Shown one piece after another: positions 6,686-62,741 of a DNA stretch of 64,000 nt. The first letter of the stretch is position 1; the number at the start of each line of letters is the position of its first letter. Source of the stretch: an uncultured Acidobacteriota bacterium (GTDB lineage Bacteria > Acidobacteriota > UBA6911); assembly GCA_963827655.1 (NCBI GenBank), contig CAWHCF010000020.1:1-64000 (forward strand), read 5' to 3'. Position numbers and translations under genes: made by a program. The notes beneath the pieces are model-generated. The model had not been told where the DNA came from and ran no database searches. It saw nothing but the letters and a program-made list of their open reading frames with translations.

Positions 6686-6746
6686 CTTTTGTGTTTCGTG
6701 GTCAGTGCTACCTAACAAATACCGCGAGGACGCGAAGACACCAAGG
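6686..6746. repeat. REP-like repeat copy (two inverted arms)
   Basis: cttttgtgtttcgtggt ... accgcgaggacgcgaagacaccaagg. Confidence 0.6.
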
Positions 6747-6759
6747 AGGGGGAGCCGAA

Positions 6760-7232
6760 TCAGCGCTGCGAAGCCGGACCCGACCGGCTGCACGTCCCGC
6801 GGTAGTATGCCTCCGCGTCGCACGTCTTGCCGCCCGGCAGCGTGCACGTGCCCTGCTCATCAGCGGTGCCGCTGCGCGCGACCACCGTGTAACGGCCGCC
6901 GTGATGCCGCAGTAGCGCGCGGCGAGCGTCGCGTACCCTGCCGCGCGGATGCCGCCCGTCGGGCACTCACCGCGCAGGAGCGCCCACTCCTCACACTGCC
7001 GGTTGTCGGAGAAAGTGCATACGCCATACTGACCCCCGCCGGGATTACGCTCGATCGTGAGGGTCCCGCCCTGCTCAACACAGTGCTGGGAGGCCGGGTT
7101 GGCGCGCTGCGCGGCGGGTCCCGGAGAGGTCGGCGCCTGTCCCACCGGTGCCGGGGGCCGTGCGCATCCAACCAGGAGCGCTATCGAGATGATCACGACG
7201 AAATGGTCAGAAAGCGCAAGAAAGCGTTTCAT
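6760..7232 (-). CDS. DUF333-domain lipoprotein, one frameshift near 6900
   Basis: Lipobox LLVGC; ANPASQHCVEQGG...CEEWALLRGEC; second Cys repeat continues in frame 6760-6966. Confidence 0.75.
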
Positions 7233-7260
7233 GCAGAGACTCCAGGACGCGCGGTTCCGT

Positions 7261-8307
7261 TTACTTCCTGGAGGCCGGGCCCTTGGCGGGCGGGAACACG
7301 GTGTTCCAGTCGCCCTTCATGCTCACGACGGTCCAGCCCCTGGCCACCGCCTCGTCCCAGCCCTTGTTGAACTGCTGTAGCTTGTCGGCGCGGTCATAGG
7401 CGTACTCACGCGCCGCGTCGTCGTGGTGGACGAAGAGGGCAAAACGCACGCCGGGCCGGCCATGGCCCATTGCAACATCTGGAAGTCGCCGTCGGAGTTG
7501 CCGAACGCAGCAATCGGACGACGTCCGATACGGCTCTGAATGCCGACCGGCTTGCCTTCTTTGTCGTCGATCAGATCCACCTCAGGCAGCTTGATCAAAA
7601 CCGGTTGCCCGTCGCGCACCTCGAGCTTCAGCTTGCCGCTGCTGCCGATGACCTGCTCCGGCGGGATCCCGTAGACCCTTTCGGTCCAGGGCCGCATGAA
7701 CTCGACGCCGCCGCCGGACACGATAAAGGTCTTGAAGTGATTGGCGCGCAGGTAGGCGAGCAGTTCGAGCATGGGCTGATAAACCATGTCCGTGAACAGC
7801 CGTCCGGTCTCAGGATGCTTCGCGGTTGCGATCCAGTCCTGCACTGCCTGGGAGAATTCGTCCGTGGTCATCCCGGTATGGGTCGCGGCCATGATCTGGA
7901 GCATACCCTTCACGACCGGCAGCGGCGACGCCCGCCATGTCGCCCTTGAGCAGGGAAGCGAAAGGCTCCTTGGTCTTCCAGTCGGGACGTTGCGGCGCCA
8001 GCGCCTTCACCCGATCGAAGGCGAACAGGAGCTGAAACGGAACCGGCTTCTCGGCCCAGAGCGTGCCGTCGTTATCGAACGTCGCAATGCGCTCGGGCAC
8101 AGGCACGAACTCGGGACCACCCTCTTTTGTAACCCGGGCGACAAAGTCCAGGATTGCGCGCTTTGACGATCCGTCGTTCCAGGACAGCAGCGGGTCAGCC
8201 GGCGCCACAGTCACGGGTGGCGCAGCCGTCTCGGTTGGTGCGGAGCCACCGCAAGCAGCCGTGAATATCAGAACCAGCAGGAAACCGCGCTTCGACGATC
8301 CGATCAT
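7261..8307 (-). CDS. HAD-family hydrolase/phosphatase lipoprotein, two frameshifts
   Basis: FDNDGTLW, IVSGGG and AFGNSDGD HAD motifs across ORFs 7810-8379, 7323-7913 and 7261-7470. Confidence 0.85.
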
Positions 8308-8477
8308 GCAAGGTCCTTTCCGAATGGCTATCAGGAGACCGCACGGCTTCGAAGGTCTGACGAGTGGAAGACCTCCCAATCGTTCTTGATGCTGACGACC
8401 GTCAATTCTGCTTCGCCAACTCCAGTGCGCGGCGTGTATCTCGGCGCCTGGAGTTGTTGTATTGTCGCCAGACGAAT

Positions 8478-10058
8478 TCAGTGTCCGGCGCCGCTGGCGC
8501 CAGCCGTCATCTTTTCGAGCGCTTCGTCGATGGTGAACGAAGCCGCCTTCTGCCGCGGCGGGAACTCCTTAAACGTCGCCAGAAACTCGGCCGACGATCG
8601 TCTGAGCCGCCAAGACCATGAAGGAATGATAGAGGATCCAGTCGTAGAAGAAGTTCGACGTCATGTCGGCGCGCTCGAAGGGATCGGTCCGCAGATTGAA
8701 GAAATTGGGCAGTCGCAACGGCATGAAGGGCTCCGCCCAGACGCTGAGGCCCTGCGCGCGCTGTTCCATGAAGACGAACTTCCAGTCGTCCAAGCGCAGC
8801 GCGATCAGGTCACCATCGTCATCGAATAAATGAAGCCCTTGGCGCGGGTTTTTCTTCGCCTCACCTTTCAGAAACGGCAACAGGTTGTAGCCGTCCAGAT
8901 GCGACTTTAAATGTCTTGTCTGCCCGCCTTATGCCCTTTCAGCAGTTTATCCATGATGTCCGGCTCGCCGGCCATCGCGAGAAAAGTCGGCAGCCAGTCG
9001 TTATGATGGATGATGTCGTTGGAAACAGCACCCGCCTTGATCTTGCCCGGCCAGCGCACCAGCATCGGGACGCGGAACGCCCCCTCCCAGTTGGTGTTCT
9101 TCTCGCTGCGGAAGGGAGTCATCGCGCCGTCCGGCCAGGTGTTCATGTGCGGCCCGTTGTCGGTCGAGTACATCACGAAGGTGTTGTCGGCAATGCCCAG
9201 CTCGTCCAAAAAGTCCAACAACTCGCCGACGTTCTTGTCGTGGTCGATCATGGTGTCATGATAAGGCGACTGCCAGGCCGGCCTTGCCCGAGGCTCTCCG
9301 GCTTGGTGTGGGTGAACAGGTGCATGTGGGTGGTGTTGACCAAGCAGAAGAAGGGCTTGTCACCGTCCACCTGACGCTTCGATGAAGTCCTTGGCTGCAT
9401 GCCACGAACTCGTCGTCGAAGGTCTCCATCCGCTTCTTGGTGAGCGGGCCGGTGTCTTCGATCTTCTGCTTGCCGACGCGGCCCCATCGCGGTTGCTCCG
9501 TCGCGTCGTCCTTGTCCGTCGCCCAGCAGTGCAGGACACCGCGCGGGCCGAACCGCTTCGCGGAACTTGCGGGAAATCTTTCTCGGGTGGGTAGTCGGGC
9601 ATCTCCGGCTCCTCCTCGGCATTGAGATGGTAGAGGTTGCCGAAGAACTCGTCGAAGCCGTGCGACGGTCGGGAGGTACTTGTTGAGGTCGCCCAGGTGG
9701 TTCTTACCGAACTGCCCGGTGGCATAGCCGAGCGGCTTCAATAGTTCGGCGATGGTCGGGTCCTCGGCGCTGAAGGCCGACGGGCCGCGCCAGGAATACC
9801 GACCTTGGTCAGTCCGGTGCGGATAGCCGCACTGCCCGGTGATGAAGGAAGCACGGCCTGCTGTGCAGCTCTGCTCGCCGTACCAGTCGGTGAACATCAT
9901 ACCTTCTTTGGCGATGCGGTCGATGTTGGGCGTGCGGTAGCCCATGATGCCGTGGTTGTAAGCAGGACAGTTGAACAACCGATGTCGTCCCCCCAGATGA
10001 TGAGGATGTTCGGCTTGGACTCAGTTCCTTTTTTGGGAGCAGTGTCTTTTGCTGGCAT
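8478..10058 (-). CDS. Arylsulfatase, multiple frameshifts
   Basis: KPNILIIWGDD, SCTAGRASFITG, FGKNHLGD, STDNGP and NWEGAFRVP motifs in successive frames. Confidence 0.88.
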
Positions 10059-10498
10059 AGTTGGTTTTCTCCTATCGGTGTGATATGGCTATTCGCCGGA
10101 GAGATTTATGAGGATACGAACGCTCCTGGTGGGGATGCGGCCCGCGGCAGACGCTCTGCTATTCCATACCCGGTCGCCCTGGCCGCTTGGACGTTCATAC
10201 GGAAACGGTTACCTCGCGACTCCCGAAAAGCTTCGTTGATCTATTTCGACTCACGGCCGGAAGCCGTGGAATGCAAAGTGCGATAAGCGTGCGCTTTCTT
10301 GATGGGGGAATGCTTGCGCTAAGCCAGACTAGATGATGATTTTTGGACGTTCAATCGCATAGATCTGGTATTTTGACAGAAAGGATTTCAGGCAGAGATT
10401 GAGCTAAACCGGCATACCCACTTGTGGGTCCACGGTAATCTGAGTCGGTATTTTGCTTGAGTGGACGTTTTCTAGTGCGTTTAGGGCGGAACAAAAGC

Positions 10499-10527
10499 AA
10501 CCACTAAGACTCGAAGAAACTCTAAGG
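10499..10527 (+). repeat. REP-like repeat copy
   Basis: aaccactaagactcgaagaaactctaagg. Confidence 0.6.
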
Positions 10528-10565
10528 ACCTTGTCGCCTTGTCCTTATAACCTTTCCCGCTAAAA

Positions 10566-12824
10566 ATGACCGTGTCTCCTCTCCAGACCGTTGGAAAAAG
10601 CCTTTACCGCAAAGAGGGGATGCAAAAGGTCACCGGCCAGGCAGTCTACGCGGATGACATGAAGGTCGAGAACTGTCTCCACGGAAAGACAGTACGATCC
10701 ACCGTTCCGCGCGGTCTCATCAAGCAGATCCGGTTCAAGGAAGGCATACCCTGGGATCAGTTCACCATTGTTCTGCCCGCAGACATTCCCGGCGAGAACG
10801 TCGTGACCCTGATCGATAAGGAGCAGCCGTTTCTGGCCGAGAAGGAAATCAAGCATATGGCCGAGCCCCTGGCGCTGATTGCGCACCCGGACAAATATCT
10901 GGTTGAAAAGGCGCTCCGGTATGTGGAAGTCGATGTCGACGAACTTCCAGGCATCTTCTCGATCGAAGAGGCGCTACGCGGCGACAACGTCCAGTATGGT
11001 TCCGACAACATTTTCAAGTCCTACACCATTCAAAACGGCGATCCCTCGGGGAAATGGAGCGAGGCGGCCCTGATACTCGAGGAGACCTACAGAACGCCGG
11101 CTCAAGAGCACCTTTACATCGAACCTCAGGCCATGATCGCGCAGGCTGAACCGGGCCGGCACGTCACCGTCTGGGGCTCCATGCAGTGCCCTTACTATGT
11201 CCGCAAGGCGCTGGCGCCTCTGTTCGATCTCGAGCCCGATCGAGTCCGCGTGGTTCAGACTGAAACGGGGGGCGGCTTCGGCGGCAAGGAAGAGTACCCC
11301 AACATGATCGCGGGGCATGCCGCCCTGCTCTCCTGGAAAGCCGGAGGGCGGCCGGTAAAACTCATCTACGATCGACGCGAGGATATGTGGGCCACGACCA
11401 AGCGCCACCCATCCAGGACTCATATCAAGGCCGGATTCAAACGAGACGGCACTTTGATTGCCCTGGAGATCGACTTCGTACTCGACGGAGGCGCGTATCC
11501 GACTCTGTCCTACACCGTGCTCTCGCGCGGCATTCTGCACGCCTGGGGACCTTACCGATGTGACGATACACACCTGCGCGCCCGTTGCGTCATGACCAAC
11601 TCTGTTCCGTATGGCGCATTTCGCGGTTTTGGCGCCCCTCAGTCGATCTTTGCCATGGAAATGCACATGACCCGCGCCGCCCACGAACTGGGCCTGGATC
11701 CCGCGCAGATTCGCCGCAGGAATTTTCTGCGCCAAGGTGACCGGATGCCTACCGGACAGGTCATCAAGGAGGAAATCGACCTGGAAATGCTCATGGATCG
11801 TGCGCTGGAAAAGGCGAGCTATCACGGCAAGCGCGCCGAGTTCGAGCGCACCAATCGTCACGGGGGGAATAGACGAAGAGGGATCGGCCTGTCCTGCTTC
11901 TTCCATGGCTCCGGCTTCACGGGGAGCGGCGAGGTCCGTCTTGCATCGGAGATTGCGCTCCGGCTCACACGCGAGGGTGGAATCGAGGTGCTGGCCGCCA
12001 ACGTCGAGTACGGGCAGGGGACGAATACCACCTTTGCCCAGATCGTGGCCGAGACGTGCAGAATCCCGCCCGACTGGGTAGAGATTCACCAGCCGGATAC
12101 GGCCGAGGTGCCGGACAGCGGCCCCACGGTCGCGTCCCGCACCACCATGATTGTTGGGAAGCTCGTCGAGCGCGCGGCGGAGCAGATACGGGACCGGCTG
12201 CTCGATCAAGGTTACGTCCTGAAAGATTACGCAGCCGCGGATTTCCGCCACGGCGCCAGAAGATACCTCGAAGAAAACAGCGAACTCAAGGTCACGGTGC
12301 GCTACGTGCCCCCCGCTGACGTGCACTGGGATGAGGCAACCTATCGGGGCGACGCCTACGGCGGCTATTCGTGGAGCTGCGACGTCGCGGAAGTCGAAGT
12401 GAATCAGGTGGACTACATGGCGCGGGTCAAGAATTTTGTCTCTGTTGTTGAGTGCGGCCGCGTGATCAACCCCGTCCTTGCCGCCGGCCAGATCGAGGGA
12501 GGCATCGTTCAGGGCATCGGGTTCGCGATTTATGAAGATGTCGTGTTAGAACGAGGCGCCATGAAGAACACCCAGTACACAAATTACATCATTCCCACCA
12601 CGGCCGACACGCCCGGGATCGACGTGGAATTCGTCGAATTTCCTTATGCCAATCACGGTCCCTATCAGGCCAAAGGGATCGGCGAAATGCCGATCGACGG
12701 GCCTGCGCCCGCCGTGGCAGCGGCGGTCGCCCACGCGCTGGGCGGTAATTTCATCAACGAGATTCCCTTGACTCCCGAGCGCATCATGACAGCCGTGGCG
12801 GGAGCAGAGGTCCAGAGGAGATGA
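10566..12824 (+). CDS. Xanthine dehydrogenase family molybdopterin-binding subunit
   Basis: GGGFGGKE, AFRGFGAPQ, GQG, GQIEGG and AKGIGE motifs. Confidence 0.93.
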   Translation: MTVSPLQTVGKSLYRKEGMQKVTGQAVYADDMKVENCLHGKTVRSTVPRGLIKQIRFKEGIPWDQFTIVLPADIPGENVVTLIDKEQPFLAEKEIKHMAEPLALIAHPDKYLVEKALRYVEVDVDELPGIFSIEEALRGDNVQYGSDNIFKSYTIQNGDPSGKWSEAALILEETYRTPAQEHLYIEPQAMIAQAEPGRHVTVWGSMQCPYYVRKALAPLFDLEPDRVRVVQTETGGGFGGKEEYPNMIAGHAALLSWKAGGRPVKLIYDRREDMWATTKRHPSRTHIKAGFKRDGTLIALEIDFVLDGGAYPTLSYTVLSRGILHAWGPYRCDDTHLRARCVMTNSVPYGAFRGFGAPQSIFAMEMHMTRAAHELGLDPAQIRRRNFLRQGDRMPTGQVIKEEIDLEMLMDRALEKASYHGKRAEFERTNRHGGNRRRGIGLSCFFHGSGFTGSGEVRLASEIALRLTREGGIEVLAANVEYGQGTNTTFAQIVAETCRIPPDWVEIHQPDTAEVPDSGPTVASRTTMIVGKLVERAAEQIRDRLLDQGYVLKDYAAADFRHGARRYLEENSELKVTVRYVPPADVHWDEATYRGDAYGGYSWSCDVAEVEVNQVDYMARVKNFVSVVECGRVINPVLAAGQIEGGIVQGIGFAIYEDVVLERGAMKNTQYTNYIIPTTADTPGIDVEFVEFPYANHGPYQAKGIGEMPIDGPAPAVAAAVAHALGGNFINEIPLTPERIMTAVAGAEVQRR

Positions 12825-13313
12825 TCGAGCGAGTCCGAGAGCAGACGATTTCACTCACGGTTAATGGGACGGAGCACCAGAGTCACAACCCACCCGATGA
12901 AACGCCTGCTGGACGTTTTGCGGGAGGATCTTCGGCTGACCGGAACCAAGGAGGGATGCGGCGAAGGGGAGTGCGGGGCCTGCACCGCAATCATGGACGG
13001 CCTTCCGGTCTTGACCTGCATGGTCCCCGTCTGCCAGGCCCGCGAGAGAAGTGTCACAACCATCGAAGGCCTCGCCCGCTCCGGCGAGCTTCATGCGATG
13101 CAGCAAGCTTTTTACGAAATGGGAGGGGCGCAATGCGGTATCTGCACTCCCGGGATGATCGTGGCGGCGGCCTATTACCTTGAGCATCCGGACGAGGCCG
13201 AAGACGTTCGCGAAGCCCTGGCCGGCAATCAGTGCCGCTGCACCGGCTACACGCGCATCTTCGAGTCGGTGACGACGGCCCTCGCGCGGCTGAGAGAAAC
13301 GGCTGCCGGCTGA
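12821..13313 (+). CDS. XDH-family 2Fe-2S subunit, frameshift near 12875
   Basis: GTKEGCGEGECGAC, QCGICTPG and CRCTGY motifs. Confidence 0.9.
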
Positions 13314-14182: not shown

Positions 14183-14262
14183 AGCTTGTTACCACGAAGT
14201 TCCTCATGAATCCCAAGTGTGCCGGGTTTGAATGACAGCGAACTGCTGCTTTTTTGGCAAGA

Positions 14263-14349
14263 TTCTTGGTGTTTCTTCGTGTCTTTGAGTCTTCGTGGTA
14301 TTTGTTAGACAGCTCTAACCACAAAGACACGAAGACACGAAGAAACACT
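14263..14349. repeat. REP-like repeat with inverted arms; the right arm is interrupted by IS110
   Basis: ttcttggtgtttcttcgtgtctttgagtcttcgtggt ... accacaaagacacgaagacacgaagaaacaCT. Confidence 0.8.
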
Positions 14350-14365
14350 TCTATGTAGTCTTGGG

Positions 14366-14371
14366 TGTCAA
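14366..14371 (-). promoter_or_regulatory. Outward-facing -35 hexamer at the IS end (possible circle-junction promoter half)
   Basis: TTGACA on the minus strand 16 nt inside the terminal core; matching -10 not visible because the other end is lost. Confidence 0.45.
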
Positions 14372-14419
14372 GCTCCTTTTCGGTTGACCTCCTTGGTTAC
14401 GTCTGCAGCTGGTGGCTCG

Positions 14420-14600
14420 GTGTCTGATTCGGGGATAGACCCCGAATGAAACTTCTATCCGTGCCGATCGTGTAGTGATCGGACACCCAATCCTGTATTC
14501 GCGCGGTGGCGAAAAATGTGCGAGCGCTTTCGGGACGCCCCATCTAAGAACCGGTTCCAAAGCGGATACCAGTGTTTCTTTCGGGCAGTCCCACCATGCC
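14420..14600 (-). ncRNA. Putative IS110 bridge/seek RNA with target-binding and donor-binding loops; ends approximate
   Basis: Stem-enclosed loops contain AAGAAACACU and UUCUUAG (target halves) and AUAGAAG (IS terminus). Confidence 0.75.
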
Positions 14601-14620
14601 GAGAAGTTGGTTTACTCTCC

Positions 14621-14752
14621 GTTGTTTTCCTCTTAGCGGCCAAGAATTCCGGTCGGCCCGCGGGGTCAAGGCCGCGCACCGCGCGCCCAAAGGGTTTAGC
14701 CTTGACGCCGCTGGGGCAGGCCGGAGCACAATGGCCGCAAGAGGAAAACAAC
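14621..14752. repeat. ~130-bp hairpin between the transposase stop and the putative bridge RNA
   Basis: gttgttttcctcttagcggcca / tggccgcaagaggaaaacaac arms; inner gtcaaggc / gccttgac. Confidence 0.7.
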
Positions 14753-14812
14753 ACCTGAGGTTTCATAAGCTGTTTAGGTCTCGAACGTTCTCACGTTCTG
14801 GTTTCTCTCCGT

Positions 14813-15817
14813 CTAAGCGACAACTACTTTTTTCAGTTGCGCGCCCTCGGGCAGAGCTCCGGTCTCGAGGAATTTCCACATATCGATCAGCAGGCGTCGT
14901 GCCAGCGCTACGATTCCGACCCTACGGACGCGCTTGCCCGCACCGCCGAAACGCTCCTCGAACCACCGAGTGAGCTTGCTCTCGGGCTGGAAGCGCACCC
15001 AAGACCAGGCCAGCTCAATCATTACCCCCCGGACGTGACGGTTGCCGGCTTTGCTGATCCCTTGCTCACGCCTCGATTCCCCGCTCTGATATGGGGTCGG
15101 CGTCAGGCCCGCGAGCGACCCGACTTCGCGCCGGTTGTTAAATTCCCTCCAGGCGAAGAACTCTCGCACCAGCACCGAACCGCCGTTGACACCAACGCCG
15201 CGCAAAGACGCAAGCTGGCGTACCTGGTCCAGGTCCGGGTTCTCTCCCTCTCTGAGTTCGCGCCTGCGGTCCCCCTCCAGCGACAGGATCTGTCGCTTCA
15301 AAAACACCACATGCGCCCGCTCGCGCTGCAGGCGGCCTTTCAACCCCGGCAGCAAAGGCGAGCCATCCCATAACCTGATCGAGTCCAGTTTCTTGTCCGA
15401 CAGCTCCTTCCCAGGCTCAAGCCTGACCCCCTGGCTCGCCAGTAGTCCCTTGATGCGATTGGTGGTCCGCGTCTTCTCCTTCTTCAGGCTGCGCAGCTCT
15501 CGATTCAACTGCCGGTTATCTTCCTCTTCGGGCGAAGGTACTCGCACCACGCTCCAGACCCTGTGCTCTCCATACTGATACCGAATCAGCATGGTCAGCA
15601 ACTTCTCCACGTCCAGGCGATCCGTCTTAGCTCGCCGCTTTCTCCGGTTCACTTCAATGCTCGCTGAGTCCAACACCAGGTTCCGATCCGAGACTGTGTC
15701 AAGTATCGATGCAGCCAAAACCCATCACGCCCTGCTTCGTAGCAGCTCACCACCTCGGCCGTCTCCGGAAGTTCGAATCGTTTCTTGGCTGCCACGATCT
15801 CCCTCTGTACTTTTTCA
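14813..15817 (-). pseudogene. IS110 transposase/recombinase lacking its N-terminus; frameshift near 15690
   Basis: SCYEAGRDGFWLHR, KTDRLD and LAGLTPTPYQSG...GISKAGN motifs; first RuvC-like acidic motif region absent. Confidence 0.9.
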
Positions 15818-15819
15818 CT

Positions 15820-16197
15820 AAGAGCACTCTCCCATTCAATGCTTTGACTAGCCTCCGGATATGCAATGCCACAGGCTGATTTCATCAAGGCGACCACGAT
15901 CTCATCCGCTATTCGAATCACCTGGTACTCGTCCAGATCTGTCATGGTCATTTCCCGGACCGCTCGATCGGGAAGAGTCATCAAGGCCTGCCTGACAAGC
16001 TCCTGGTTCTCGGGGGAGGAATCAACTAGAAGGTCGATGTCCTCAGTGGCCCGAGCGAATCCCAAACGAATAATAGCCATGCCGCCGACCACGATGTATT
16101 TGGCACCTAACCGATTGAGCTCGCTGCAGAGATGAAGAAGATCCTCTAGCGTAGGCGGCCTGGACTCGCCTTCCTGGCCTGCATCTGAATCGACCAC
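15820..16197 (-). pseudogene. Nucleotidyltransferase-fold protein, 3'-truncated and reading in frame into the IS110 transposase
   Basis: YIVVGGMA...RATEDIDLLVD; similarity appears to stop at about IEWE. Confidence 0.75.
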
Positions 16198-19438: not shown

Positions 19439-19473
19439 TTCTTAGCGTTTCTTGTCTCGTGTCTTAGTGGTTT
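19439..19473 (-). repeat. REP-like repeat copy
   Basis: ttcttagcgtttcttgtctcgtgtcttagtggtt. Confidence 0.7.
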
Positions 19474-23694: not shown

Positions 23695-23765
23695 TTTTGT
23701 GCCTTCGTGGTTAGCGCTGGGGAAAAAATACCACGAAGACACTAAAACACGAAGAAACACTAAGG
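23695..23765. repeat. REP-like repeat with inverted arms
   Basis: gtgccttcgtggtt ... accacgaagacactaaaacacgaagaaacactaagg. Confidence 0.75.
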
Positions 23766-26706: not shown

Positions 26707-26937
26707 GGGCTCGCGCAGAAATAACTTCACATTCTGGCGCGAGAGTCGGTGTCAATCATGAACCGGTTACTGTTAGCCAAGCAGACGAGGATCGCGCCCC
26801 TTCGGGCTGCGGCCCGCAGGCCCGCTGGCTTTGTTGCTCGCTCCTCACGTACCGCCGCGGGTACGCATCGTCGCTCGCGCCTCGCCAGCGGGCCTGGGGG
26901 CCTGCAGCAGAATGCGAACTTATTTCTGCGCGAACCC
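26707..26937. mobile_element. MITE, 231 bp, with ~30-bp terminal inverted repeats and TAA target duplication
   Basis: TAA|gggctcgcgcagaaataacttcacattctg ... cagaatgcgaacttatttctgcgcgaaccc|TAA. Confidence 0.85.
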
Positions 26938-26991
26938 TAAGCGATCGGAGTGTTTATGCATCGAATTCACCCGGACTCTCGATTGCCGGCC

Positions 26992-28435: not shown

Positions 28436-28555
28436 AACCGCTAAGACACGAAGGTTCGTTCGGGGACTTCGCCCCGAACGAAAGCCCTTGCGAACGACAA
28501 CATGTTGGTTTGAACGTTTCGCTAAGCGCCTAAGACTCGTAGAAACACTAAGAAA
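28436..28555. repeat. REP-like repeat enclosing a ~68-bp element (copy 1) and an 11-bp perfect hairpin
   Basis: ttcgttcgggg-acttcg-ccccgaacgaa; 28468-28535 matches the reverse complement of 32279-32347. Confidence 0.8.
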
Positions 28556-32172: not shown

Positions 32173-32402
32173 CACCACGAAGACTCGAAGACACCAAGAA
32201 ACGCGAAGCTAAGAATATCTTGGTGGTGCCTTAGACCGTCTGGTATCCCGTGTCTTGCGGCACCCTTCGCTTGGCGTTTCTTAGGCGCTTAGCGAAGCGT
32301 TCAAACTAACATGTCGTCGTTTGCAAGGGCCTTTCGTTCGGGGCGAATTTCAGTCCTTGTGCCATGCTTTGCGTTTCTTAGAGTCTTCGGTCTTCGTGGT
32401 TA
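32173..32402. repeat. REP-like repeat arms enclosing the ~68-bp element (copy 2, inverted)
   Basis: accacgaagactcgaagacaccaag ... gtcttcggtcttcgtggtt. Confidence 0.78.
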
Positions 32403-36587: not shown

Positions 36588-36637
36588 TCTTCGCGTTTCT
36601 ACCACGAAGGCGCGAAGACACGAAGAAACACCAAGAT
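36588..36637 (+). repeat. REP-like repeat copy
   Basis: accacgaaggcgcgaagacacgaagaaacaccaag. Confidence 0.75.
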
Positions 36638-36662: not shown

Positions 36663-38279
36663 ATGAACCTGGCGTGGTGGCTGGAAACGGGGGCGTGGGA
36701 ATACCCGGATAAGACGGCAATCATCAATCCCGACGGATCGGAGATCACCTATTCCGAGCTCAACCAGCTGTCCAATAGAATCGCAAACCTGCTGCGCGAC
36801 CGGTACGCTATCCGGCCGGACGACGTCGTGACCACGCTCGCCGGCGAGACGCACTGGCATGTCGCCATCATGTTCGGACTCTGGAAAATCGGCGCGGTGG
36901 TGTGCCCCTTGAATCGGACCCAGACCTATCCGAAGTTCGTCCAGGACATCCGCATCACAAGGGCGAAGCTGTTGATCGTGGAGCCGAAGTTCCTGGATGT
37001 GGCGATGCGGCTGTCGGCGGAGCGGGAGATCCCGAATGCCGTACTCCTGGGCGAGCAGAGCGATGCCTTCCCTGATTTCAAGACCCTGGTTCGGGACGCC
37101 GGCGATCAGATCCGCATGACTCCGCGAGCCAACGCGGATCTGGCAATCATCAACTTCACAACCGGCACCACGGGTCCCTCGAAGGGCGCGATGCTGCCGC
37201 ACGGGGCGCTCGTGACATCGTATCTTTCGGGCATGCACTGGGCCGGAATGAAGAGCTCCGAGCGCGGTCTCTGCCCGCTCTACCTGTTTCATGCCGGCGG
37301 CCTGAGCATTGTCCTGACCGGACTGGTGGCGCATTCGACCGTCATCATGATGGGAGAACCGTGGAACAGCGACCGGTTCATCGACCTTATGGAACGCTAC
37401 CGCCCGGACTGGGTGTTCATCATGGTTCCGGTAATGACCCGGGACCTGGGACGAAACCCTCGTTTCGCCGGCCTGGACTGCACCGGAGTGAGGCTGCATC
37501 TGGCGGGCGAGCCGGTCCATCCGGAGGTGCAGAAGTTGTGGGAGGACCGGGGCGCCCGAACCTTGATTCTCTACGGCATGACGGAAAGCATGGCGGTCTG
37601 CGTCACTTTGAACTCGTTCTACTACGGCGACGACAAATCGGTCGGGAAAGGTCTGGTCGGCAAGCCCAACCGCGAATTCGGCGACGTCAAGCTCATCGAT
37701 CCCCTCACCCATGAGGAAATAACCGAACCGGGGATCAGGGGGGAACTCTGCTTTCGAGGGGATGTCCTGACGCCCGGCTACTACAACGATCCGGCGCGAA
37801 CGCGCGAGTCGATCGACCCGGAGGGGTGGTTCCATACCTTCGACCTGGCAGTGCGCAATAGCGAGGGCTATTTCACCGTCGGCGGGCGCACGGACGATAT
37901 CATCTCAAGCGGTGGAGAAAAGCTCTCGCTCATCGAGGTGGAAAACGCGATTCTGCAGGCTCCGTTCGTAAAAGACGCGGCCTGTATCGGCGTGCCTCAC
38001 ACGCGCTTCGGACATTCGCCCGCCGCCATCGTCGCTCCGGCTGAAGACCTGGAGGAAAACGAGCTCATGAACCGGCTGGACGAATTCCTGAGGGAAAACC
38101 TCGAGCGATGGAAGCGACCGCGTCTCGTTATACGGGTTGATGAGGTCCCGCGCACCCTGGCCAAGCGGACGAAGATCTGGCCCAAGTTGCGAGAACTGAT
38201 CCAGGGAGTCGAACTCTCAGGGGAAGGCGTAACTACCCTGACAGCCTACCGCCGCGAGCATAGCCGATTGACGATTTGA
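36663..38279 (+). CDS. Acyl-CoA synthetase (AMP-binding, class I adenylate-forming)
   Basis: FTTGTTGPSKG, YGMTES and GRTDDIISSGGEK motifs. Confidence 0.92.
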   Translation: MNLAWWLETGAWEYPDKTAIINPDGSEITYSELNQLSNRIANLLRDRYAIRPDDVVTTLAGETHWHVAIMFGLWKIGAVVCPLNRTQTYPKFVQDIRITRAKLLIVEPKFLDVAMRLSAEREIPNAVLLGEQSDAFPDFKTLVRDAGDQIRMTPRANADLAIINFTTGTTGPSKGAMLPHGALVTSYLSGMHWAGMKSSERGLCPLYLFHAGGLSIVLTGLVAHSTVIMMGEPWNSDRFIDLMERYRPDWVFIMVPVMTRDLGRNPRFAGLDCTGVRLHLAGEPVHPEVQKLWEDRGARTLILYGMTESMAVCVTLNSFYYGDDKSVGKGLVGKPNREFGDVKLIDPLTHEEITEPGIRGELCFRGDVLTPGYYNDPARTRESIDPEGWFHTFDLAVRNSEGYFTVGGRTDDIISSGGEKLSLIEVENAILQAPFVKDAACIGVPHTRFGHSPAAIVAPAEDLEENELMNRLDEFLRENLERWKRPRLVIRVDEVPRTLAKRTKIWPKLRELIQGVELSGEGVTTLTAYRREHSRLTI

Positions 38280-38463
38280 CGATTGACGATTGACGATTGA
38301 AAAAACGACTGCGGGATGAGAACTTCCGACGCTCAAGATCTCCGGTCATGGCGGGCATGCATTCGACCGAATGAATCGGCATGGTCAGATCTTGCAGCGT
38401 CGGAGAGTTCTCATCTCGCAGTCGTTTTTCAATCGTCAATCGTCAATCGTAAATCGTCAATCG
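38265..38463. repeat. ~200-bp foldback with terminal GATTGAC heptamer arrays
   Basis: Left and right arms are near-perfect reverse complements over about 75 bp. Confidence 0.88.
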
Positions 38464-40452: not shown

Positions 40453-42157
40453 ATGAAAGTTCGAAAGCGCGGGGCATGGGCGATGCTCCTCTTATTGACT
40501 GCCAGGGCCTTCAGGGTCAACGGCCGGGCGGGAGGATATTGTCCACTCGTTCGGGTACATTTCCATGAAGGACGGCGCGCAGATCTCTTACACACTGCAT
40601 CGGCCGTCCGCCCAGGGACGCTTTCCCACTTTACTGGTCTACAACATGTATGACGCGTCGGCCGTCGCACCCAATTGGAACCAGACGGTGTCGACGGAAG
40701 TCTCCGACTACCTCGAGGAAGGATTCGCGGTCATGGGCGCAAACGTCCGGGGCACGGGCTGCTCCAGCGGGAGCCTCGACCCGCTCGATGCCGAGCAGGT
40801 CGGTAGGGACGGCGCCGAAGTGATCGAGTGGATTGCGCGCCAGCCATGGAGCGATGGTGCCGTCGGGATGTTCGGCCATTCCGGCTCGGGAATCACGCAA
40901 TTCTACGTTGCGGCCCGGAATCCCGCGCCGCTCAAGGCGGTCATCCCGGGCGCGGCCCCGGCTGATCTCTACCGGGATATCGGCTATCCCGGCGGACTGT
41001 TCAACTACACTTTCATGTATCAGTGGTCGGAACGGGCGCAACCGGCTCAGTCGGAGCATGCGGCCCGGGTCCACATTGAAAGCGGCGATAGGGACTGCGC
41101 GGAACGCGTCAGGAGCCGGCAACCCAATACAACATTCAAGGAGCTGACGAGCCGGCCCCTGGACGATGATTGGTACGCGAGGCATTCGGTCTACTCGGTG
41201 GCCTCGCGCATCAAGGTGCCTGCTTTCGTGGTTTTCGGCTGGCAGGACCAGAGCGTTCTCTCAAGCGCCATTCGCGTCTTCGATCAGCTGCAGGGACCGA
41301 AAAGAATGCTGCTGGCCGAGGAGGGGCACAACTTCTACATCCGCTCGATCGAGTTGCGGCGCGAAAAGATTCGCTTCTTTAACCGCTGGCTGAAAGGTGC
41401 GTCCCCGGGCGCTCCTGACGTCAAGCCGATCAAGATCTGGCTCAGCATGCGAGGCTCGATCGAGAGCATCCCGGATCGGGTCCTGCACGTGGACCGGCTC
41501 CCGGCGCCCGGCACGCGCTGGACCGAGCTGTTTCTTGCCAAAGGGAACAGCCTGCAGTCAGAGCCTCCGGGTGAGGGAGCGAGCGCCACGTATCTATATC
41601 CGTCCGGCTCGGCCTTCGTGTACGGAGGCGAGCGCTATCCGCATACGCCGTCCGAACTGGGCGGACTGACGTTCCGGACGAAACCTTTTCCACGAGAGAC
41701 CCTTCTGCTGGGACCCACCGTGGTCCGGCTCTACCTGGCTTCCACGCAGGAGGACACGTCGGTTTTCGCCGTCCTGAACGAAGTGGATCCCTCCGGCGGG
41801 AGAAGGTATTTGCAGCGCGGATATCTGAAAGCCTCGATGCGGGAACTCGACCCTCAGGCTTCCAGGCCGGGATCGCCCGTGTATCGGTTCAAGAAGAGCG
41901 TGCCGCTGCGGCCCGGCGAGGTGACGGCGCTCGAGATCGAGCTGCATCCGACCGGAAGCATCATCGAAGCGGGCAATGCGCTCGAGCTTCTTGTGATGGC
42001 GCCGATGATGGTTCCGGAGCCGTTCGGGCAGTGGGGATTCATGCCGCTCCCGATGGCTATCAACACAATTCACATGTCGCCCGAGTACCGTTCCCGTGTG
42101 CTCTTGCCGTTTGTCGATGAACAAATACCACCAAGAAACAACGGGATTGACGATTGA
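40453..42157 (+). CDS. CocE/NonD family hydrolase; frameshift near the N-terminus
   Basis: NVRGTGCSSG and WSDGAVGMFGHSGSG motifs; C-terminal PepX-like domain. Confidence 0.88.
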
Positions 42158-42221
42158 CGATTTATGGCTGTCGACGAACGTGGACCATGGATCGTCAATC
42201 GTCAATCGTCAATCGTCAATC
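42145..42221. repeat. Inverted GATTGAC heptamer arrays between convergent genes (possible bidirectional terminator)
   Basis: gattgacgattgacgat ... atcgtcaatcgtcaatcgtcaatcgtcaatc. Confidence 0.8.
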
Positions 42222-43171: not shown

Positions 43172-43235
43172 GCCACGAATTCCACGAATTTCACGAAACT
43201 TAAGTTGGCTCTGTGAAATTCGTGTAATCCGTGGC
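43172..43235. repeat. Hairpin of CACGAATT-type 9-mer repeats
   Basis: gccacgaattccacgaatttcacg ... gtgaaattcgtgtaatccgtggc. Confidence 0.72.
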
Positions 43236-54006: not shown

Positions 54007-54195
54007 ACTGCTGGTTGCTTTTACGGACGGCGTGACCGAAGCGCTCAACGCTGAAGAGGAGGAGTTTGGCGAAGCGCGGCTGCAAGACGTTCTCGCGCGC
54101 TCGATGCACCTGCCGGTGCAAGAGGTAAGCCAGAGGTTCGTTCAGAGCATGAGTGATTGCATGGGCCGTGCGCCCCAGCACGATGACCCGACTTT
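54007..54195 (+). pseudogene. C-terminal remnant of a PP2C/SpoIIE phosphatase
   Basis: LLVAFTDGVTEA...EFGEARL...PQHDDPTL with no upstream domain. Confidence 0.75.
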
Positions 54196-54294
54196 ATCGT
54201 CCTCAGAATCATGTGAGACCGGGGACGTACCCGGTTTTTCAGGCTTGCTTTTCCGACCCAGCCTCATTGAAACTTACTGCGCGGGGGATAGTCC

Positions 54295-54622: not shown

Positions 54623-54655
54623 AAACGCTAATGCTCCCAGGCATGAGGCACGATT

Positions 54656-57711: not shown

Positions 57712-57794
57712 AGCCCGGATGATACAAGAGTTCCTGAGCGACGACAATCTGTCGTCGGATCGACCTTCGTTCGCGAAGTCCTCGTCGCGCATTC

Positions 57795-57820
57795 CTTCGA
57801 GTCTTCGTGTCTTGGCGGTA
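57795..57820 (-). repeat. REP-like repeat copy
   Basis: cttcgagtcttcgtgtcttggcggt. Confidence 0.65.
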
Positions 57821-57904
57821 TTTTTTTGAAAGATGTGTTGACGCATGGTCGGGCGAAGATTTAGCATCGCCCCCAAACCTCCCCCCCACCTTGAAGGAGG
57901 TCCT

Positions 57905-60900
57905 ATGGTTCCCCGTCTGCATATGTGGTTCGTGGTGTTGCTTTGTTCCGCCGTATCGCTTTTCGCCCAGGGCGACCGTGGTACGATCGCGGGCCTGGTA
58001 AAGGATGCGAGCGGTGCCGTTATTCCCGGGGGCACGATCGAGGCCGTGCAGCAGGGCACGAACCTCAAAGCCGAGACGGTAACGACGACCACCGGTGTGT
58101 ATCGTCTCCTCGCGCTTCCCATCGGCAGGTACACGGTGACCGCCACCGTGCCTGGCTTCCAGAGCCATGTAGTGCAGGACGTCCAGGTGCAGGTCAACCA
58201 GACCACTACCATCGACATCAGCCTGACGGTCGGCCAGGTGGCTGAGACGGTGACGATCACGGGCGCTGCTCCGCTGATTCAGACCGAGAGCGCCGACGTC
58301 GGCCTCGTGGTCGAGTCGAAGCGCTTCCTGGAACTGCCGCTCACGATGGGAGGCGGCATCCGCAACCCGTCGAGCTTCATCAAGCTCTCGCCCGGGGTAG
58401 ACCCGCGCAGCACGTGGACCAAATCGATCAGCGGCGGCGGGTCCTTCACCGACATGACCTATTACGACGGAATCGCGCTCAGCCGCGGGGATCTGTCGAA
58501 CGACGCGCGAGGTGAACCCGTCGGTCGATGCGATCGAGGAGTTCAAGCTCATCACCAACAACTACTCGGCCGAGTATGCGCACGCCCTGGGCGCCATCAC
58601 GAGCTTCACCATGAAGAGCGGCACGAACCGCCTCCATGGCGCGGGCTTCTATTTCCTGCGCAACGAAGTGCTCGATGCCCGCGGGTTCTTCAACTCGAGA
58701 AGGGCGCCGGCAAAACAGAACGAGTGGGGCGGAACGCTGGGCGGCCCCGTCTTGATTCCCAAACTCTACGACGGCCGCGACAAGACCTTCTGGTTCTTCT
58801 CCTGGGATCAGTTTTACCTGCGCGGCGGACAATTGGCAGGGCTCAACACCTTGCCGACGGCGCTCATGCAGACCGGTGACTTCAGCGAGCTGCCGCGAAC
58901 GATCTACGATCCGACGACCACGCGCCTTGACGCGAGCGGCCGCACCATCCGGGATCCGTTCGAAGGCAATCGCATCCCGCAGAACCGCTGGAGCCGCGTG
59001 GCCTCGGCCATGCTGCCATTCCATCCCAAGCCCGAGCTTCCAGGGATCGTGAACAATTCGGTGGCGCCTCTCGGCAGCCCGATGACCGACCAGCTGACGA
59101 CGGGCTTCAAGATCGACCATATCATATCGCCCTCGCACCGCATCAGCGGCGTGTTCAACATGACGCACCGGCCATCGATCAAGAGTCCCGAGCCGTCGCG
59201 GCTGCTCTCCGTCGGCGACCCGACGGCGCTGACCAATTACAATTTCCAGGTGGTCACGACGCGGGTCATCCACATCAATATCGACAGCAGCCTCAGCCCG
59301 ACGACCATCAACCACATCGGCATCGGCTACTCCCGTTTCCGCAACCCGAACTTCAGCACGTCGTTCGAAAAGGGCTGGACCCAGCCCAACGGCGGGAAAC
59401 TCGGTCTTCAGGGGCTGCAGTTCGACCTCTTTCCGACCGTCATGTTCGGAACCGAGGGGTACACGCGCTATGGCGACGACATCGCCTCGGACAACTATTT
59501 CAACACCGGGACGCTGCTCGACACCCTGACGCTCGTCCGGCGCAATCACACGTTCAAGTTCGGCGGCGAGATCCAGCACCACCAGGATAATTATCGAAAC
59601 TTCGGAAACGGGGGCGGGTCGTTCACGTTCCGGCGCGAGTCGACCGGATTGCCGGGCGTCTCGGCCTCAGGCGACGCCTGGGCGAGCTTTCTGCTGGGGG
59701 AGACCTATTCCGGAAACGCGTTCTTCCGCGCCTCGCTGCCGGGCGGACGGTATGACAATATAGGCTTCTTCTTCGACGACACCTGGAAAGTGACCCCGAA
59801 GTTCACCCTGACGATGGGGTTTCGCTGGGAGATTGTCGTGCCCCACGACGACCCGCTGGGCCGGGTCTCGTACATGGACATCAACAGCCCGAACACCGCC
59901 GCCGGGAATCTTCCCGGCGCCATGGTATATGGCGGCGAGCAAGGCTTCGGCAACCGGTTCCTGGACATCCTCTGGTGGAACCCGGCGCCGCGACTGGGCC
60001 TGGCCTATCGGATGAATGAGAAGACCGTGATCCGCGCCGGAGCGGGGATCTTCAACTCCAACTACATCAACCAGGGGCTTGGACTCCCGAGTTTCGGGTT
60101 CTCCACTACGGCCTCGTTCGCCACGGCCGATAGCGGGATTACCCCGGCCTTCAACTGGGACAACGGTTTCCCGCAGGACTTCCGCCGTCCGCCGGTCATC
60201 GACCCGGTAGCCGCCAATGGACAGAGCGTCACAACCGTCCTGCCCGCCGAGTACGACCTTCCCTACACGCCTTCAGTGGAATCTGACCGTCGAGCGCCAG
60301 TTCTCCGATGATCTCGCGCTGAGCGTCTCGTATGTCGCCAACAAGGGAACCCATCTGTACGAGAGCCAGCAGCTCAACCAGCTGCCGCGGGAGTACTGGA
60401 ACCTGCCGCTCTCACTACTGCGGGCTCAGATCAACTCGCCGGCCGCTCAGGCCGCCGGGTTCCGGGAGCCGTTCCCAGGCTTCCTCGCTCTCTGGGGCTC
60501 CCGCGGCACGGTGGCGCAGGCGCTCCGGGCCTACCCGCAGTTCAACGGCGTCGGTATCTACGGCTCAACCTATGGCAACTCGAGCTACAATTCGTTTCAG
60601 TTCAAGCTCGACAAACGGTACCAGGGCGGCCTCTCCGCGACCGCGGCTTACACCTGGTCGAAATTCCTCACCGACGCGCGGCAGTTCGACTCGCTGTCAG
60701 GAAAGCAGGATGAGATGCTGCGCGAGAAGAGCTACCACCCGCTCGACCTCACCCATATCATGACGTTCAGCGTCAATTACCAGATTCCGCTGGGCCAGGG
60801 GCACAAGTTCATGTCCGATGGCATCAAGGCCCAGATCTTCGGCGGGTGGCAGGCCGCGCTGGTCAATGCCTACAACAGCGGCAGCCGCCTCGCTGTGACG

Positions 60901-61299
60901 GTCCCGAACACGCTGCCGTACTTTAACGGCGGTCTTCGGCCCGACCTGATATCCGGCAACATCAGGAGCGACGTCTCGATGTCGGACTTCGACCCTGCGA
61001 CGAACCTCTATCTGAACCGCGGCGCCTTCGCGCTGCCGGCAGATGGAGCCCTGGGGACCGCGCCACGCTACCTGGAAGTCCGCGGACCCGCGCGCCTGGA
61101 CGAGTCTTTTGCGCTGGTGAAGAATACCAGGGTCCGGGAAGGTCTCACGTACCAGTTCCGGATGGAGATCCTGAATCCACTGAACCGTGTGGTGTTCGGC
61201 GCTCCTGTCACCGACATCACGCAGGTCAACTTCGGGCGCATCTCGAGCACGCAGATCAACCCGCGGCAGATCCAGTTCGGGATGAAGCTGATCTTTTAG
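57905..61299 (+). CDS. TonB-dependent receptor (Oar-like); two frameshifts
   Basis: RBS gaaggagg; NPSVDAIEEF and DDTWKVT motifs; C-terminal QFGMKLIF. Confidence 0.9.
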
Positions 61300-61323
61300 C
61301 ACCGAGACGCCGGAATCCCGAGA

Positions 61324-61388
61324 CTTAGTGTTTCTTCGTGTCTTCGTGAGAGGTATTTGTTTCGCAGCGCTAACCACGAAGACACGAG
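61324..61388. repeat. REP-like repeat with inverted arms
   Basis: cttagtgtttcttcgtgtcttcgtg ... aaccacgaagacacg. Confidence 0.75.
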
Positions 61389-61458
61389 ACGCCACCGCCA
61401 CAAAATACCCAGTCAGGATGTGGTGGAAAATTCACCACCAGATGGCTAATATTCTGCC

Positions 61459-62694
61459 ATGTACCGGCGGAATGTGGACGCGAGATTGCGCGCGGCGTTG
61501 GCGGATACCCCGGTCGTACTGCTCAATGGCGCCCGGCAGACAGGAAAGAGCACGCTGGCGCACCAGCTGTCGGCGGATCTGGGCGGGCTTTACGTGACGC
61601 TTGACGATGCGACAGTGCTAGCCGGCGCGGTGGCCGATCCGGTTGGGTTCTTGAATAACCTCGAAGGCTTCGTTGTGATCGACGAAGTCCAGAAGGCTCC
61701 CGGGTTGTTTCCGGCCATCAAAAAGCAGGTGGATGTAGAACGCCGCCCAGGACGCTATCTTCTCACGGGCTCGGCGAACGTATTGCTCCTGCCACGCCTG
61801 TCCGAATCGCTGGCGGGCCGAATGGAGATTGTTACTCTCTGGCCCTTGTCACAGGGAGAGCTGGCAGGTCGTCGCGAAGGTTTTATTAGTGGATTGTTCT
61901 CGAGCCGCATGTCTCACCGCGTCAGAGCGGCGCCGGAGGATCGGCAGCTTGCCGCAAAAATTGCCACCGGAGGTTATCCCGAAGCGGTTGCACGGGATGA
62001 GGAGCCACGACGACAGGCATGGTTTGGCTCATACATCACCGCCATCCTCCAGCGTGATGTGCGAGATCTAGCTAACATTGAAGGATTGACCGAGATGCCT
62101 CGTCTACTGGCGTTGCTTGCCGCGCGCACGTCCGGCCTCATGAACACGGCGGAGCTATCGCGAGCATCCACAATCCCGCAGAGCACGCTCAAGCGTTACC
62201 TGACCCTCTTTGAAACGACTTACCTGCTCCAGCCCTTGCCCGCATGGACGGCCAACATTGGTAAGCGCCTCATTAAATCTCCCAAAATTCACCTCGTCGA
62301 TTGTGGCCTGGCATCCCATCTCACCGGTCAGACCGAAAAAAGAATCGTGAACGATCCGGTGATGCTTGGTCCTTTACTGGAAAGCTTTGTGGTAATGGAG
62401 CTGCGCAAGCAAGCTAGTTGGTCGGATGTCCGGGTATCGATTCATCATTTTCGCTCCGCTGCCGGGCGCGAGGTTGACATTGTGCTCGAAGATTCAAGCG
62501 GGCAAATCGTCGGCGTCGAGGTGAAAGCTGCCGGGAGCGTCGCAAAGAAAGATTTCGCCGGCCTCGAAGCGCTGGCCGAAGCCGCGGGAAAGAAGTTCCT
62601 GCGCGGCGTCGTGCTTTACAGCGGCGATTCTGTTGTGCCTTTCGGACCAAAGTATCAAGCGCTACCCGTCGGCAGCTTGTGGCGGATGGCCTGA
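61459..62694 (+). CDS. AAA_14 ATPase with DUF4143 nuclease-like C-terminal domain
   Basis: GARQTGKST, IDEVQK, LTGSA and EVDIVLE...VEVK motifs. Confidence 0.92.
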   Translation: MYRRNVDARLRAALADTPVVLLNGARQTGKSTLAHQLSADLGGLYVTLDDATVLAGAVADPVGFLNNLEGFVVIDEVQKAPGLFPAIKKQVDVERRPGRYLLTGSANVLLLPRLSESLAGRMEIVTLWPLSQGELAGRREGFISGLFSSRMSHRVRAAPEDRQLAAKIATGGYPEAVARDEEPRRQAWFGSYITAILQRDVRDLANIEGLTEMPRLLALLAARTSGLMNTAELSRASTIPQSTLKRYLTLFETTYLLQPLPAWTANIGKRLIKSPKIHLVDCGLASHLTGQTEKRIVNDPVMLGPLLESFVVMELRKQASWSDVRVSIHHFRSAAGREVDIVLEDSSGQIVGVEVKAAGSVAKKDFAGLEALAEAAGKKFLRGVVLYSGDSVVPFGPKYQALPVGSLWRMA

Positions 62695-62711
62695 TCATTT
62701 TTCGAAAGGTA

Positions 62712-62741
62712 CTTAGCGTTTCGGTCGTGTCTTCGTGGTTA
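62712..62741 (-). repeat. REP-like repeat copy overlapping the CRTAC1 stop
   Basis: cttagcgtttcggtcgtgtcttcgtggtta. Confidence 0.65.

Follow-up and report, generated by a model that had tools for sequence, protein, structure and literature searches.

Heptad arms of an uncultured Acidobacteriota genome as apparent landing sites of an IS1111-type insertion sequence, and their association with GxxExxY nuclease genes

The elements known as repetitive extragenic palindromes (REPs) are defined by a GTAG (or CGTC) tag at one end (PMC3733652) and serve as targets for insertion sequences (ISs) of the IS1111 group, whose other traits are sub-terminal inverted repeats and a long 3′ non-coding region (NCR) that holds a guide RNA (PMC11187229; PMC11208160). 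In the published target-binding loop the two target halves each include the core. In this study, we analyzed a 64,000-nt stretch of DNA (the window) from an uncultured Acidobacteriota bacterium (assembly GCA_963827655.1, contig CAWHCF010000020.1), in which a dense family of short intergenic repeats, here called arms, accompanies a truncated IS1111-type element. As a rule, a given REP family is restricted to one species or genus. A 27-nt arm is common to Planctomycetota, Bacteroidota, Cyanobacteria, Acidobacteriota, Chloroflexota, Proteobacteria and others. We consider it fairly probable that the dispersed arms are the landing site of the IS and at the same time belong to a cross-phylum class of arms that bracket GxxExxY genes, the gene-less arms being non-autonomous copies of that class.

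The arm family and the insertion sequence that enters it

The source genome (8.18 Mb in 53 contigs, 60% G+C, 90% complete) contributes the window as positions 1-64000 of its contig C20; PSCyt1/PSCyt2 and sulfatase genes were seen in its DNA, and strains related to it are found in metagenomes of soil and rhizosphere. The motif ACGAAGACACGAAGA, with at most two mismatches, matches the window 14 times against 0.13 expected, a number reached in 0 of 100 shuffles, and AAGAAACACTAAG, with at most one mismatch, matches seven times against 0.01 expected. Read directly at the window sites, an arm consists of ACC and three to four tandem CACNAAG heptads (spacing 8/8/10), with variation mostly at the N position and CAC and AAG fixed. 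The arm units are direct heptads starting ACC(A/G)C, each without a palindrome of its own, and hairpins are formed by doublets only. An initial annotation of the window had named about 11 intergenic repeat loci, often with inverted pairing. Arms are present at all 11, and both inverted pairs and one distant convergent pair are found among them (Table 1). The genome-wide motif scan that it proposed gave 1046 arm loci, 954 of them in the 19.7% of the genome that is intergenic according to our own crude gene caller, which is based on open reading frames (ORFs) and codon bias.

Heptads on the same strand are spaced mainly at 8 (455), 10 (232) and 16 nt (201), those on opposite strands at 29 nt (68). 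Inverted doublets take the '-+' form (CTT.GTGGT, centre, ACCAC.AAG) 138 times and the '+-' form 13 times. Among 134 doublets the centre most often measures 18 nt (55 cases) and follows the pattern TAG.GC.G...AACAAAT; no exact centre is shared by more than 12 of them, and few copies are identical. The consensus of the 108 oriented doublets among 133 extracted (25 without assignable orientation were left out) reads ...CTT.G.GTTTCTT.GTGTCTTCGTGTCTTCGTGGT-TAGAGCTG...AACAAAT-ACCAC.AAGACTCGAAGACACGAAGAAACACCAAGAATCTTGCCAAAAAAGC. Such a doublet would fold into a hairpin of about 30 bp around the conserved 18-nt centre. The best doublet of the window (14258-14352) reaches -45.9 kcal/mol with a z of -8.1, another a z of -3.5, and two weaker, degenerate ones -2.1 and -0.9. 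Rfam returned no family at the gathering score in the window, and hairpins from other phyla matched only sub-threshold miRNA models.

The transposase remnant of the window copy matches Pfam Transposase_20 (PF02371; 2.8e-18) and the C-terminal part of DEDD_Tnp_IS110 (PF01548), on which the full copies score 28.8-29.2 bits, at the 29-bit cut-off. Five copies of this IS were found in the genome, namely the truncated one and four full ones (two on contig C10, one on C44 and one on C37), to which the window copy is 99.5% identical. The full element measures 1723 bp between two AG (= CT) cores. Its nt 103-1257 hold the tnp gene, the inverted repeats CTATGTAG/CTACATAG are sub-terminal, and the 3′ NCR is 466 nt long compared with 102 nt for the 5′ NCR. 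At the left junction all five copies read ...(C)TT-AG followed by ATCCTATGTAGGG, and the right junctions read CTACATAGA followed by AG-TG(T/G)..., with a 1-nt deletion in one copy.

The target sequences, given on the arm strand, are CACGAAGAAACA-CT-AAGACAC, CACCAAGAAACA-CT-AAAGCAC, CAAATACCA-CT-AAGACGCG and GATCAAACA-CT-AGGCACG, and the window copy joins the arm at CACGAAGAAACA-CT. All five copies lie inside or at arm heptads with the CT core (CACT^AAGA), and AAGAAACA-CT is common to four of the five. The 3′ NCR folds stably (z -5.5); its nt 236-245 are AAGAAACACT, and some 30 nt beyond these is TTCTTAG. Written as RNA, AAGAAACACU and UUCUUAG correspond to the two halves of AAGAAACA-CT-AAGAA, each with the core, and from the NCR and the arms a pairing of guide and target is predicted. 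Rfam gave no match here.

The initial annotation had proposed that the IS uses the repeat as its target and that many targets are unoccupied, and both proposals are borne out. Unoccupied sites number 17 for exact 15-mers, 94 with at most one mismatch and 174 with at most two mismatches and the CT core kept; 20 shuffled 15-mers gave 0-1 matches each. Within the window, where several arms had been predicted to contain the target, it is exact at 23752-23764(+) and 61324-61336(-), occurs with one mismatch at 19441-19453(-), and is also found at 28540-28552. Judged from the sequences of the junctions, arm heptads are the programmed landing site of this IS1111-type element. Insertion there may be harmless to the host, in the sense of the 'safe harbour' that had been suggested. 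The genome offers a natural case of an IS1111-type bridge/seek RNA whose putative guide and target can both be read, with five occupied and ~17-170 free sites, and which could be used to study target choice and off-target tolerance.

A second IS110-family element of ~1970 bp is present in two copies (99.4% identical; C50:~128110-130079 and C53:~86465-88433), and its flanks are unrelated to arms. Beside the truncation point of the window copy at 15817 lies an ORF, 15649-16197(-), with a weak AbiEii/nucleotidyltransferase match (1.8e-5). Metagenome contigs from two runs continue past 15817 with other sequence for more than 100 nt, which we take to be the rest of the IS. One contig of metagenome run X2 skips 14822-15726 inside the IS.

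Arms at GxxExxY nuclease genes and across phyla

Arms are distributed patchily among relatives. When 40 relatives were compared with the source genome using a strict arm pattern, the source genome had 473 matches, four others had 308, 95, 39 and 10, and the rest 0-3; the reversed control gave 0. A generalised pattern, ACCRCNRAGNCRCNRAG, matched 648 times in the source genome (600 intergenic) and 1134, 1034, 345, 280, 187, 144 and fewer times in others, with 0-4 matches per genome for its reversed control. Beyond these relatives, ACCACNAAGACNCNAAGAAACAC was found in at least 97 stretches (one genome per species scanned), where about one would be expected by our own estimate under uniform composition. 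The phyla among the matches listed are Bacteroidota, Acidobacteria, Cyanobacteria, Chloroflexi, Planctomycetes, several Proteobacteria, Nitrospirota, Ignavibacteriota and others, and more than one match per genome was frequent. In these genomes conservation extends to the third heptad and to a T-rich 5′ flank, the N is often equal in all heptads of a copy, and many arms form hairpins a few nucleotides behind a stop codon. Five such genomes contained 15, 1, 62, 12 and 28 arm copies.

In a metagenome-assembled genome (MAG) of the Gemmataceae, two arms 492 nt apart enclose a gene for a 132-aa protein that matches PF13366 (7.6e-42) and TIGR04256, 'GxxExxY protein'. The initial annotation had recommended a search for genes consistently flanked by the repeat, and in two independent samples GxxExxY genes turned out to be flanked by arms more often than controls. 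From 40 PF13366 loci, seven were left out (a contig-edge locus, the locus of genome G034, the broken copy of the source genome, one weak match and three fragments), leaving 33 intact genes. At least two heptads of one type within 110 nt were found at 21/33 of these genes compared with 14/320 control windows from the same loci, and at least three at 18/33 compared with 4/320. For the second sample, 69 of 80 metagenome loci were usable; in the other 11, the flanks fell short of 150 nt or no ORF of 105-150 aa was present. Scored for flanking inverted repeats without a preset pattern, 35/69 of these genes reached at least 12, compared with 0/69 for shuffled flanks and 8/69 for flanks from mismatched loci, and the flanking arms were again tandem units of the ACC(A/G)C type. 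Y1 transposase loci were a poor control for flanking inverted repeats because they carry terminal inverted repeats (TIRs) of their own.

The arms at these genes are of several types (CACNAAG, C(A/G)CAGAG, CACGGAT, CGCNAAG and GCGGAGG), all of them inverted tandem units of 8-9 nt led by ACC(A/G)C. Their ACC ends point outward, with the 5′ arm in many cases running up to the start codon. In G025 and G043 the gene's own arm variant also dominates among the dispersed arms of the genome, as ACCACAAAGACACGAAGA in G025 (33/39 among those listed) and ACCACAAAGACACAAAGA in G043 (57/62). At least ten generalised arms are found in 14/23 PF13366-positive relatives (G034 included) compared with 3/18 negative ones. 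Once four long-branch rows were dropped, the alignment (29 rows) shows at least 90% conservation of the GxxExxY and the catalytic D...ExK residues. A search of PDB sequences with a GxxExxY protein gave no match, and PADLOC returned only a weak Cas4 match (E 0.0056). An earlier survey lists PF13366 as 'Unknown' with 'multiple transfers' (PMC3424549). In the source genome, the PF13366 copy is frame-broken (C19:35526-35878), flanked by the arms ACCGCGAAGACGCGAAG... and GCTAAGACTCGAAGTCACAAAG; an intact GxxExxY gene was not found in this 90% complete assembly. A C-terminal remnant of a PF13366 gene likewise lies between arms in Ampullimonas aquatilis.

The link between arms and GxxExxY genes is, at the level of sequence, a statistical and architectural association. 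By analogy with known systems, the GxxExxY protein, a PD-(D/E)XK nuclease, may be what mobilises the arms. A wider proposal, which we put forward tentatively and hold to be possible rather than probable, is that GxxExxY nucleases are the enzymes of a second class of REP doublets forming hairpins (REPINs) across phyla, independent of REP-associated tyrosine transposases (RAYTs), with amplified gene-less doublets that outlive the gene as fossil populations and then become pads for IS1111 elements and transposable elements of the miniature inverted-repeat type (MITEs). Each nuclease gene would lie between inverted tandem-heptad arrays that its product would recognise, and gene-less doublets, as non-autonomous copies, would owe their spread to hundreds or thousands to help from the nuclease. 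Lineages like the source organism would keep a fossil population of arms after loss of the gene, and the leftover arms would then serve the IS1111 element and two MITE-like elements as insertion sites. The ~1000 arms of the source genome are probably ageing and no longer mobile, because only a broken GxxExxY gene remains. The association gives a very common small nuclease family without known function a role that can be tested, and it suggests that genome parasites or symbionts of the REPIN-like kind arose on more than one occasion, using different nucleases.

Several findings weigh against the view that the arms are non-autonomous copies of a GxxExxY-associated, IS-targeted class. Detectable arms are lacking at 12/33 PF13366 genes and at 34/69 metagenome genes. 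The relatives compared are kin rather than independent samples, and three of the PF13366-negative genomes, MAGs that are 84-93% complete, have 16-280 arms. Arm-type labels cluster overall on the PF13366 tree (12 changes compared with 18.9 when shuffled), but the tree is poorly resolved (7/30 branches starred), and CACNAAG arms need five changes, no better than shuffles. The ACC ends point inward in the doublets of the source genome and outward in gene-bearing elements. No target-site duplication and no pair of empty and filled sites was found for the arm doublet, for which the metagenome contigs gave one weak joint only, 14185>14328 (one contig, side 22). Finally, the donor-loop match in the NCR of the IS is partial, exact for ATAGAAG and 6/9 by eye on the other side. 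A comparison of orthologous intergenic regions was given up, since the best relative shares just 57% identity in its proteins.

Guests, host genes and Y1 transposases as alternative explanations

The arms are entered by more than the IS, and this bears on what they are. The element fam3, with long TIRs and a CTWAG duplication, has 87 genome copies of at least 180 nt, many of them inserted in the CTAAG of arms. The copy in the window is absent from one contig in each of 4/4 soil and rhizosphere metagenome runs (joint 26706>26946, sides 255/30/102/255), so fam3 has been mobile recently. The 77-nt hairpin element fam2 has 70 genome copies of at least 65 nt, regularly placed directly after ...CACTAAGG of an arm, and its copy at 28454-28530 is missing from one contig of run X4, from a related strain. 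The arms might be pre-existing hairpins targeted by several mobile things, with the GxxExxY cassette a guest in the loop rather than the mobiliser. Three other elements do enter arms, the IS at CACT^AAGA, fam2 after ...CTAAGG and fam3 at CTWAG, and the inter-arm space of Ampullimonas holds a GGGGACAG-type hairpin that resembles the TIR core of its Y1 gene. Against a mere guest, paralogous genes within a genome carry different arm types, each matching a dispersed population of the same type (CACAGAG and CACNAAG in G025), and the start codon often adjoins the arm. Neither was an arm-independent mobiliser found. Among 585 arm pairs 0.3-8 kb apart, compared all against all, there was no multi-copy gene between arms, and genome self-comparison showed no high-copy IS. 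We therefore regard a guest cassette as quite unlikely.

The same 585 pairs led us to reject an autonomous transposon with arms as its TIRs, since their shared content was only fam3 and a few paralogues. As for the arms being MITEs themselves, they have inverted arms, but no duplication was seen in the consensus flanks and no matching autonomous IS was found. The remark in the initial annotation that no mobiliser of the repeat is visible in the window stands; none was found there.

Our own initial reading of the arms was that of a promoter or 5′-leader motif of many operons. Several window copies (36601, 57794, 23730 and 6721) point at a start codon with a nearby ribosome-binding site, and a -10-like TAAT-TTC precedes ACCAC in other phyla. 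This reading was rejected because orientation and region counts show no preference, and we now give it next to no credence. Only 467/952 intergenic arms are directed at a gene start, and single arms in tandem regions are split between same and opposite orientation 174 to 186. Arm-holding intergenic regions are tandem in 459 cases, convergent in 165 and divergent in 157 (0.49, 0.68 and 0.41 per kb).

Position relative to stop codons is an argument for a role in the host. In either orientation, arms follow the upstream stop codon at a short distance (median 23.5-29 nt, compared with ~80 nt to the next start), and they could be mRNA 3′-end stabilisers, terminator-like hairpins or protein-binding arrays that are kept by selection without mobile copying, the GxxExxY genes sharing the module. 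The concentration of variation at N with CAC and AAG constant, the scarcity of identical copies and centres, and the leader-like position of the 5′ arm, which ends 0-40 nt before the start codon in gene-bearing elements, all agree with selection. On the other hand, arms are equally found in divergent intergenic regions, where 3′ ends do not exist, their number ranges from 0-7 to more than 1000 per genome among relatives, and in some genomes the variants are near-clonal, as in G043. The doublet consensus has no T-run after the hairpin on either strand; it has a T-run before and an A-run after (also at 14250-14260 of the window), which departs from the intrinsic terminator pattern of a GC-rich hairpin with a T-run on the transcribed strand. 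Inward-pointing arms bracket host genes 39 times against 34.7 expected, so a general 'gene bracket' shows no excess. Host selection alone thus seems unlikely to us.

The initial annotation had called the repeat REP-like and recommended a search for RAYT/TnpA-REP genes flanked by it. Arms would resemble a classical REP/REPIN family mobilised by a RAYT, a Y1 HUH transposase, in their high copy number, intergenic position and inverted doublets, and in being an IS110 target, as described for E. coli and Pseudomonas REPs. In its 90% complete assembly, the source genome has a single PF01797 (Y1, IS200-like) gene (C35:41713-42383). A 25-bp inverted repeat starting GGGGACAG flanks it, with its only two copies in the assembly both at the gene (unit C35:41647-42862), and no arm lies within 6 kb. 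Y1 genes are present in 37/41 relatives irrespective of arm counts, and heptad doublets were found at 1/30 of the Y1 loci of relatives, 700 bp from the gene. The GTAG/CGTC tag is absent from the arms and the doublet consensus, and the units are direct heptads. The RAYT link was rejected on the unrelated TIRs of Y1 genes, the 1/30 loci and the independence of Y1 presence from arm count; the chance that a RAYT mobilises the arms is in our view very slight, and 'REP-like' does not apply in that sense. In the Ampullimonas aquatilis chromosome (L143-L156), arms enclose ~100 nt with a GGGGACAGAG...CTCTGTCCCC hairpin that resembles the TIR core (GGGTCAGAGT) of the single Y1 gene of that genome, and two repeat systems appear to be nested there.

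Of the explanations weighed, a cross-phylum arm class at GxxExxY genes that also receives the IS is the one we prefer, and Table 1 collects the features of the window. Two further observations concern repeats of similar build. The window also has a single arm of a 9-nt CACG(A/G)AT type, AGCCACGAATTCCACGAATTTCACGAAA, at 43173-43198, a type also seen on the flanks of PF13366 genes in other genera (L181, L188 and L200). A second family with the same architecture as the arms consists of inverted arrays of tandem GATTGAC heptamers (window 38264-38463, 42145-42221 and 170-208), for example (CGATTGA)x5, ~128 nt of palindromic filler and (TCAATCG)x5. Genome-wide, its motif GATTGACGATTGACGATTGAC matches at 804 overlapping positions with at most two mismatches (control 0), frequently in +/- pairs.

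Table 1. Arms and mobile elements of the window
Feature	Position	Strand	Details
Inverted doublet	6686..6745		Arm 6686-6702(-), short, degenerate; centre 6703-6720 (18 nt); arm 6721-6745(+); weak fold, z -0.9
Single arm ACCACTAAGACTCGAAGAAACTCTAAG	10500..10526	+	Motif match, read directly
Full inverted doublet	14261..14349		Arm 14261-14299(-); centre 14300-14317; arm 14318-14349(+); IS cuts at CT core 14348-14349
5′-truncated IS1111-type IS	14350..15817	-	nt 255-1723 of full 1723-bp element; transposase remnant 14813-15718(-); 3′ NCR 14350-14812 with putative bridge/seek RNA
Single arm	19439..19471	-	One-mismatch IS target at 19441-19453
Inverted doublet between divergent genes	23696..23764		Arm 23696-23711(-), short; centre 23712-23729; arm 23730-23764(+) with exact AAGAAACACTAAG
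fam3 MITE, 239 bp	26707..26945		TIRs GGGTTCGCGCAGAAATAAG...; CTWAG duplication; outside arm family
Arm split by 77-nt fam2	28437..28554	+	Arm 5′ part 28437-28453; fam2 28454-28530; arm 3′ part 28531-28554 with AGAAACACTAAGAA
Convergent arms	32175-32216, 32367-32401	+, -	Enclose degenerate arm pieces and second fam2 copy (32284-32347)
Single four-heptad arm	36601..36636	+	27 nt upstream of ATG with AGGAGG ribosome-binding site
Single arm	57794..57819	-	Adjoins start of ApbE-family gene
Inverted doublet	61324..61390		Arm 61324-61348(-) with exact IS target; centre 61355-61372; arm 61373-61390(+); -28.5 kcal/mol, z -3.5
Single arm	62712..62739	-	

Relation to described systems

As far as sequence comparison goes, what appears new here is the cross-phylum arm, the flanking of GxxExxY genes by arms, the presence of the dominant variant at the gene and the broken gene copy in the source genome. 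No paper on arms bracketing GxxExxY/PF13366 genes or on the arm sequence was found in the literature within reach, which left out subscription journals and closed supplements.

The IS shares with IS621, ISPpu9/ISPpu10 and other REP-targeting IS110/IS1111 elements a DEDD recombinase with Transposase_20, sub-terminal inverted repeats and a long 3′ NCR, and also the CT core, a duplication limited to the core and a high-copy intergenic repeat as target (PMC11208160; PMC11187229; PMC12288879). It differs in having as target a heptad from a family other than REPs, in a pairing of guide and target that is read from sequence, and in the truncation of the window copy.

Arms are like MITEs in being short, non-coding, inverted-ended and high-copy, and unlike them in that neither a DDE-type autonomous partner nor a target-site duplication was found; fam2 and fam3 are truly MITE-like and polymorphic between strains. 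TIRYT/TIRtron elements consist of Y1 genes whose TIRs are of the GGGGWSAS form (Di Nocera et al., 2013; PMC3733652). The sole Y1 gene of the source genome fits this type (TIR GGGGACAGGCTAC...); its TIR has 2 copies, both at the gene, and bears no relation to the heptad arms.

A close likeness in design is to the REPIN/RAYT system (Bertels and Rainey; PMC3116915; PMC3337134). Both comprise hundreds of short intergenic inverted doublets with a patchy distribution among relatives, a small nuclease gene flanked by the dispersed sequence, and several gene/repeat pairs of different type per genome. In the present case, the gene encodes a PD-(D/E)XK protein (PF13366) and not a Y1 HUH enzyme, the arms are tandem direct heptads rather than palindromic REPs and have no GTAG tag, the arm sequence is common across phyla, and mobilisation by the nuclease is proposed by analogy.

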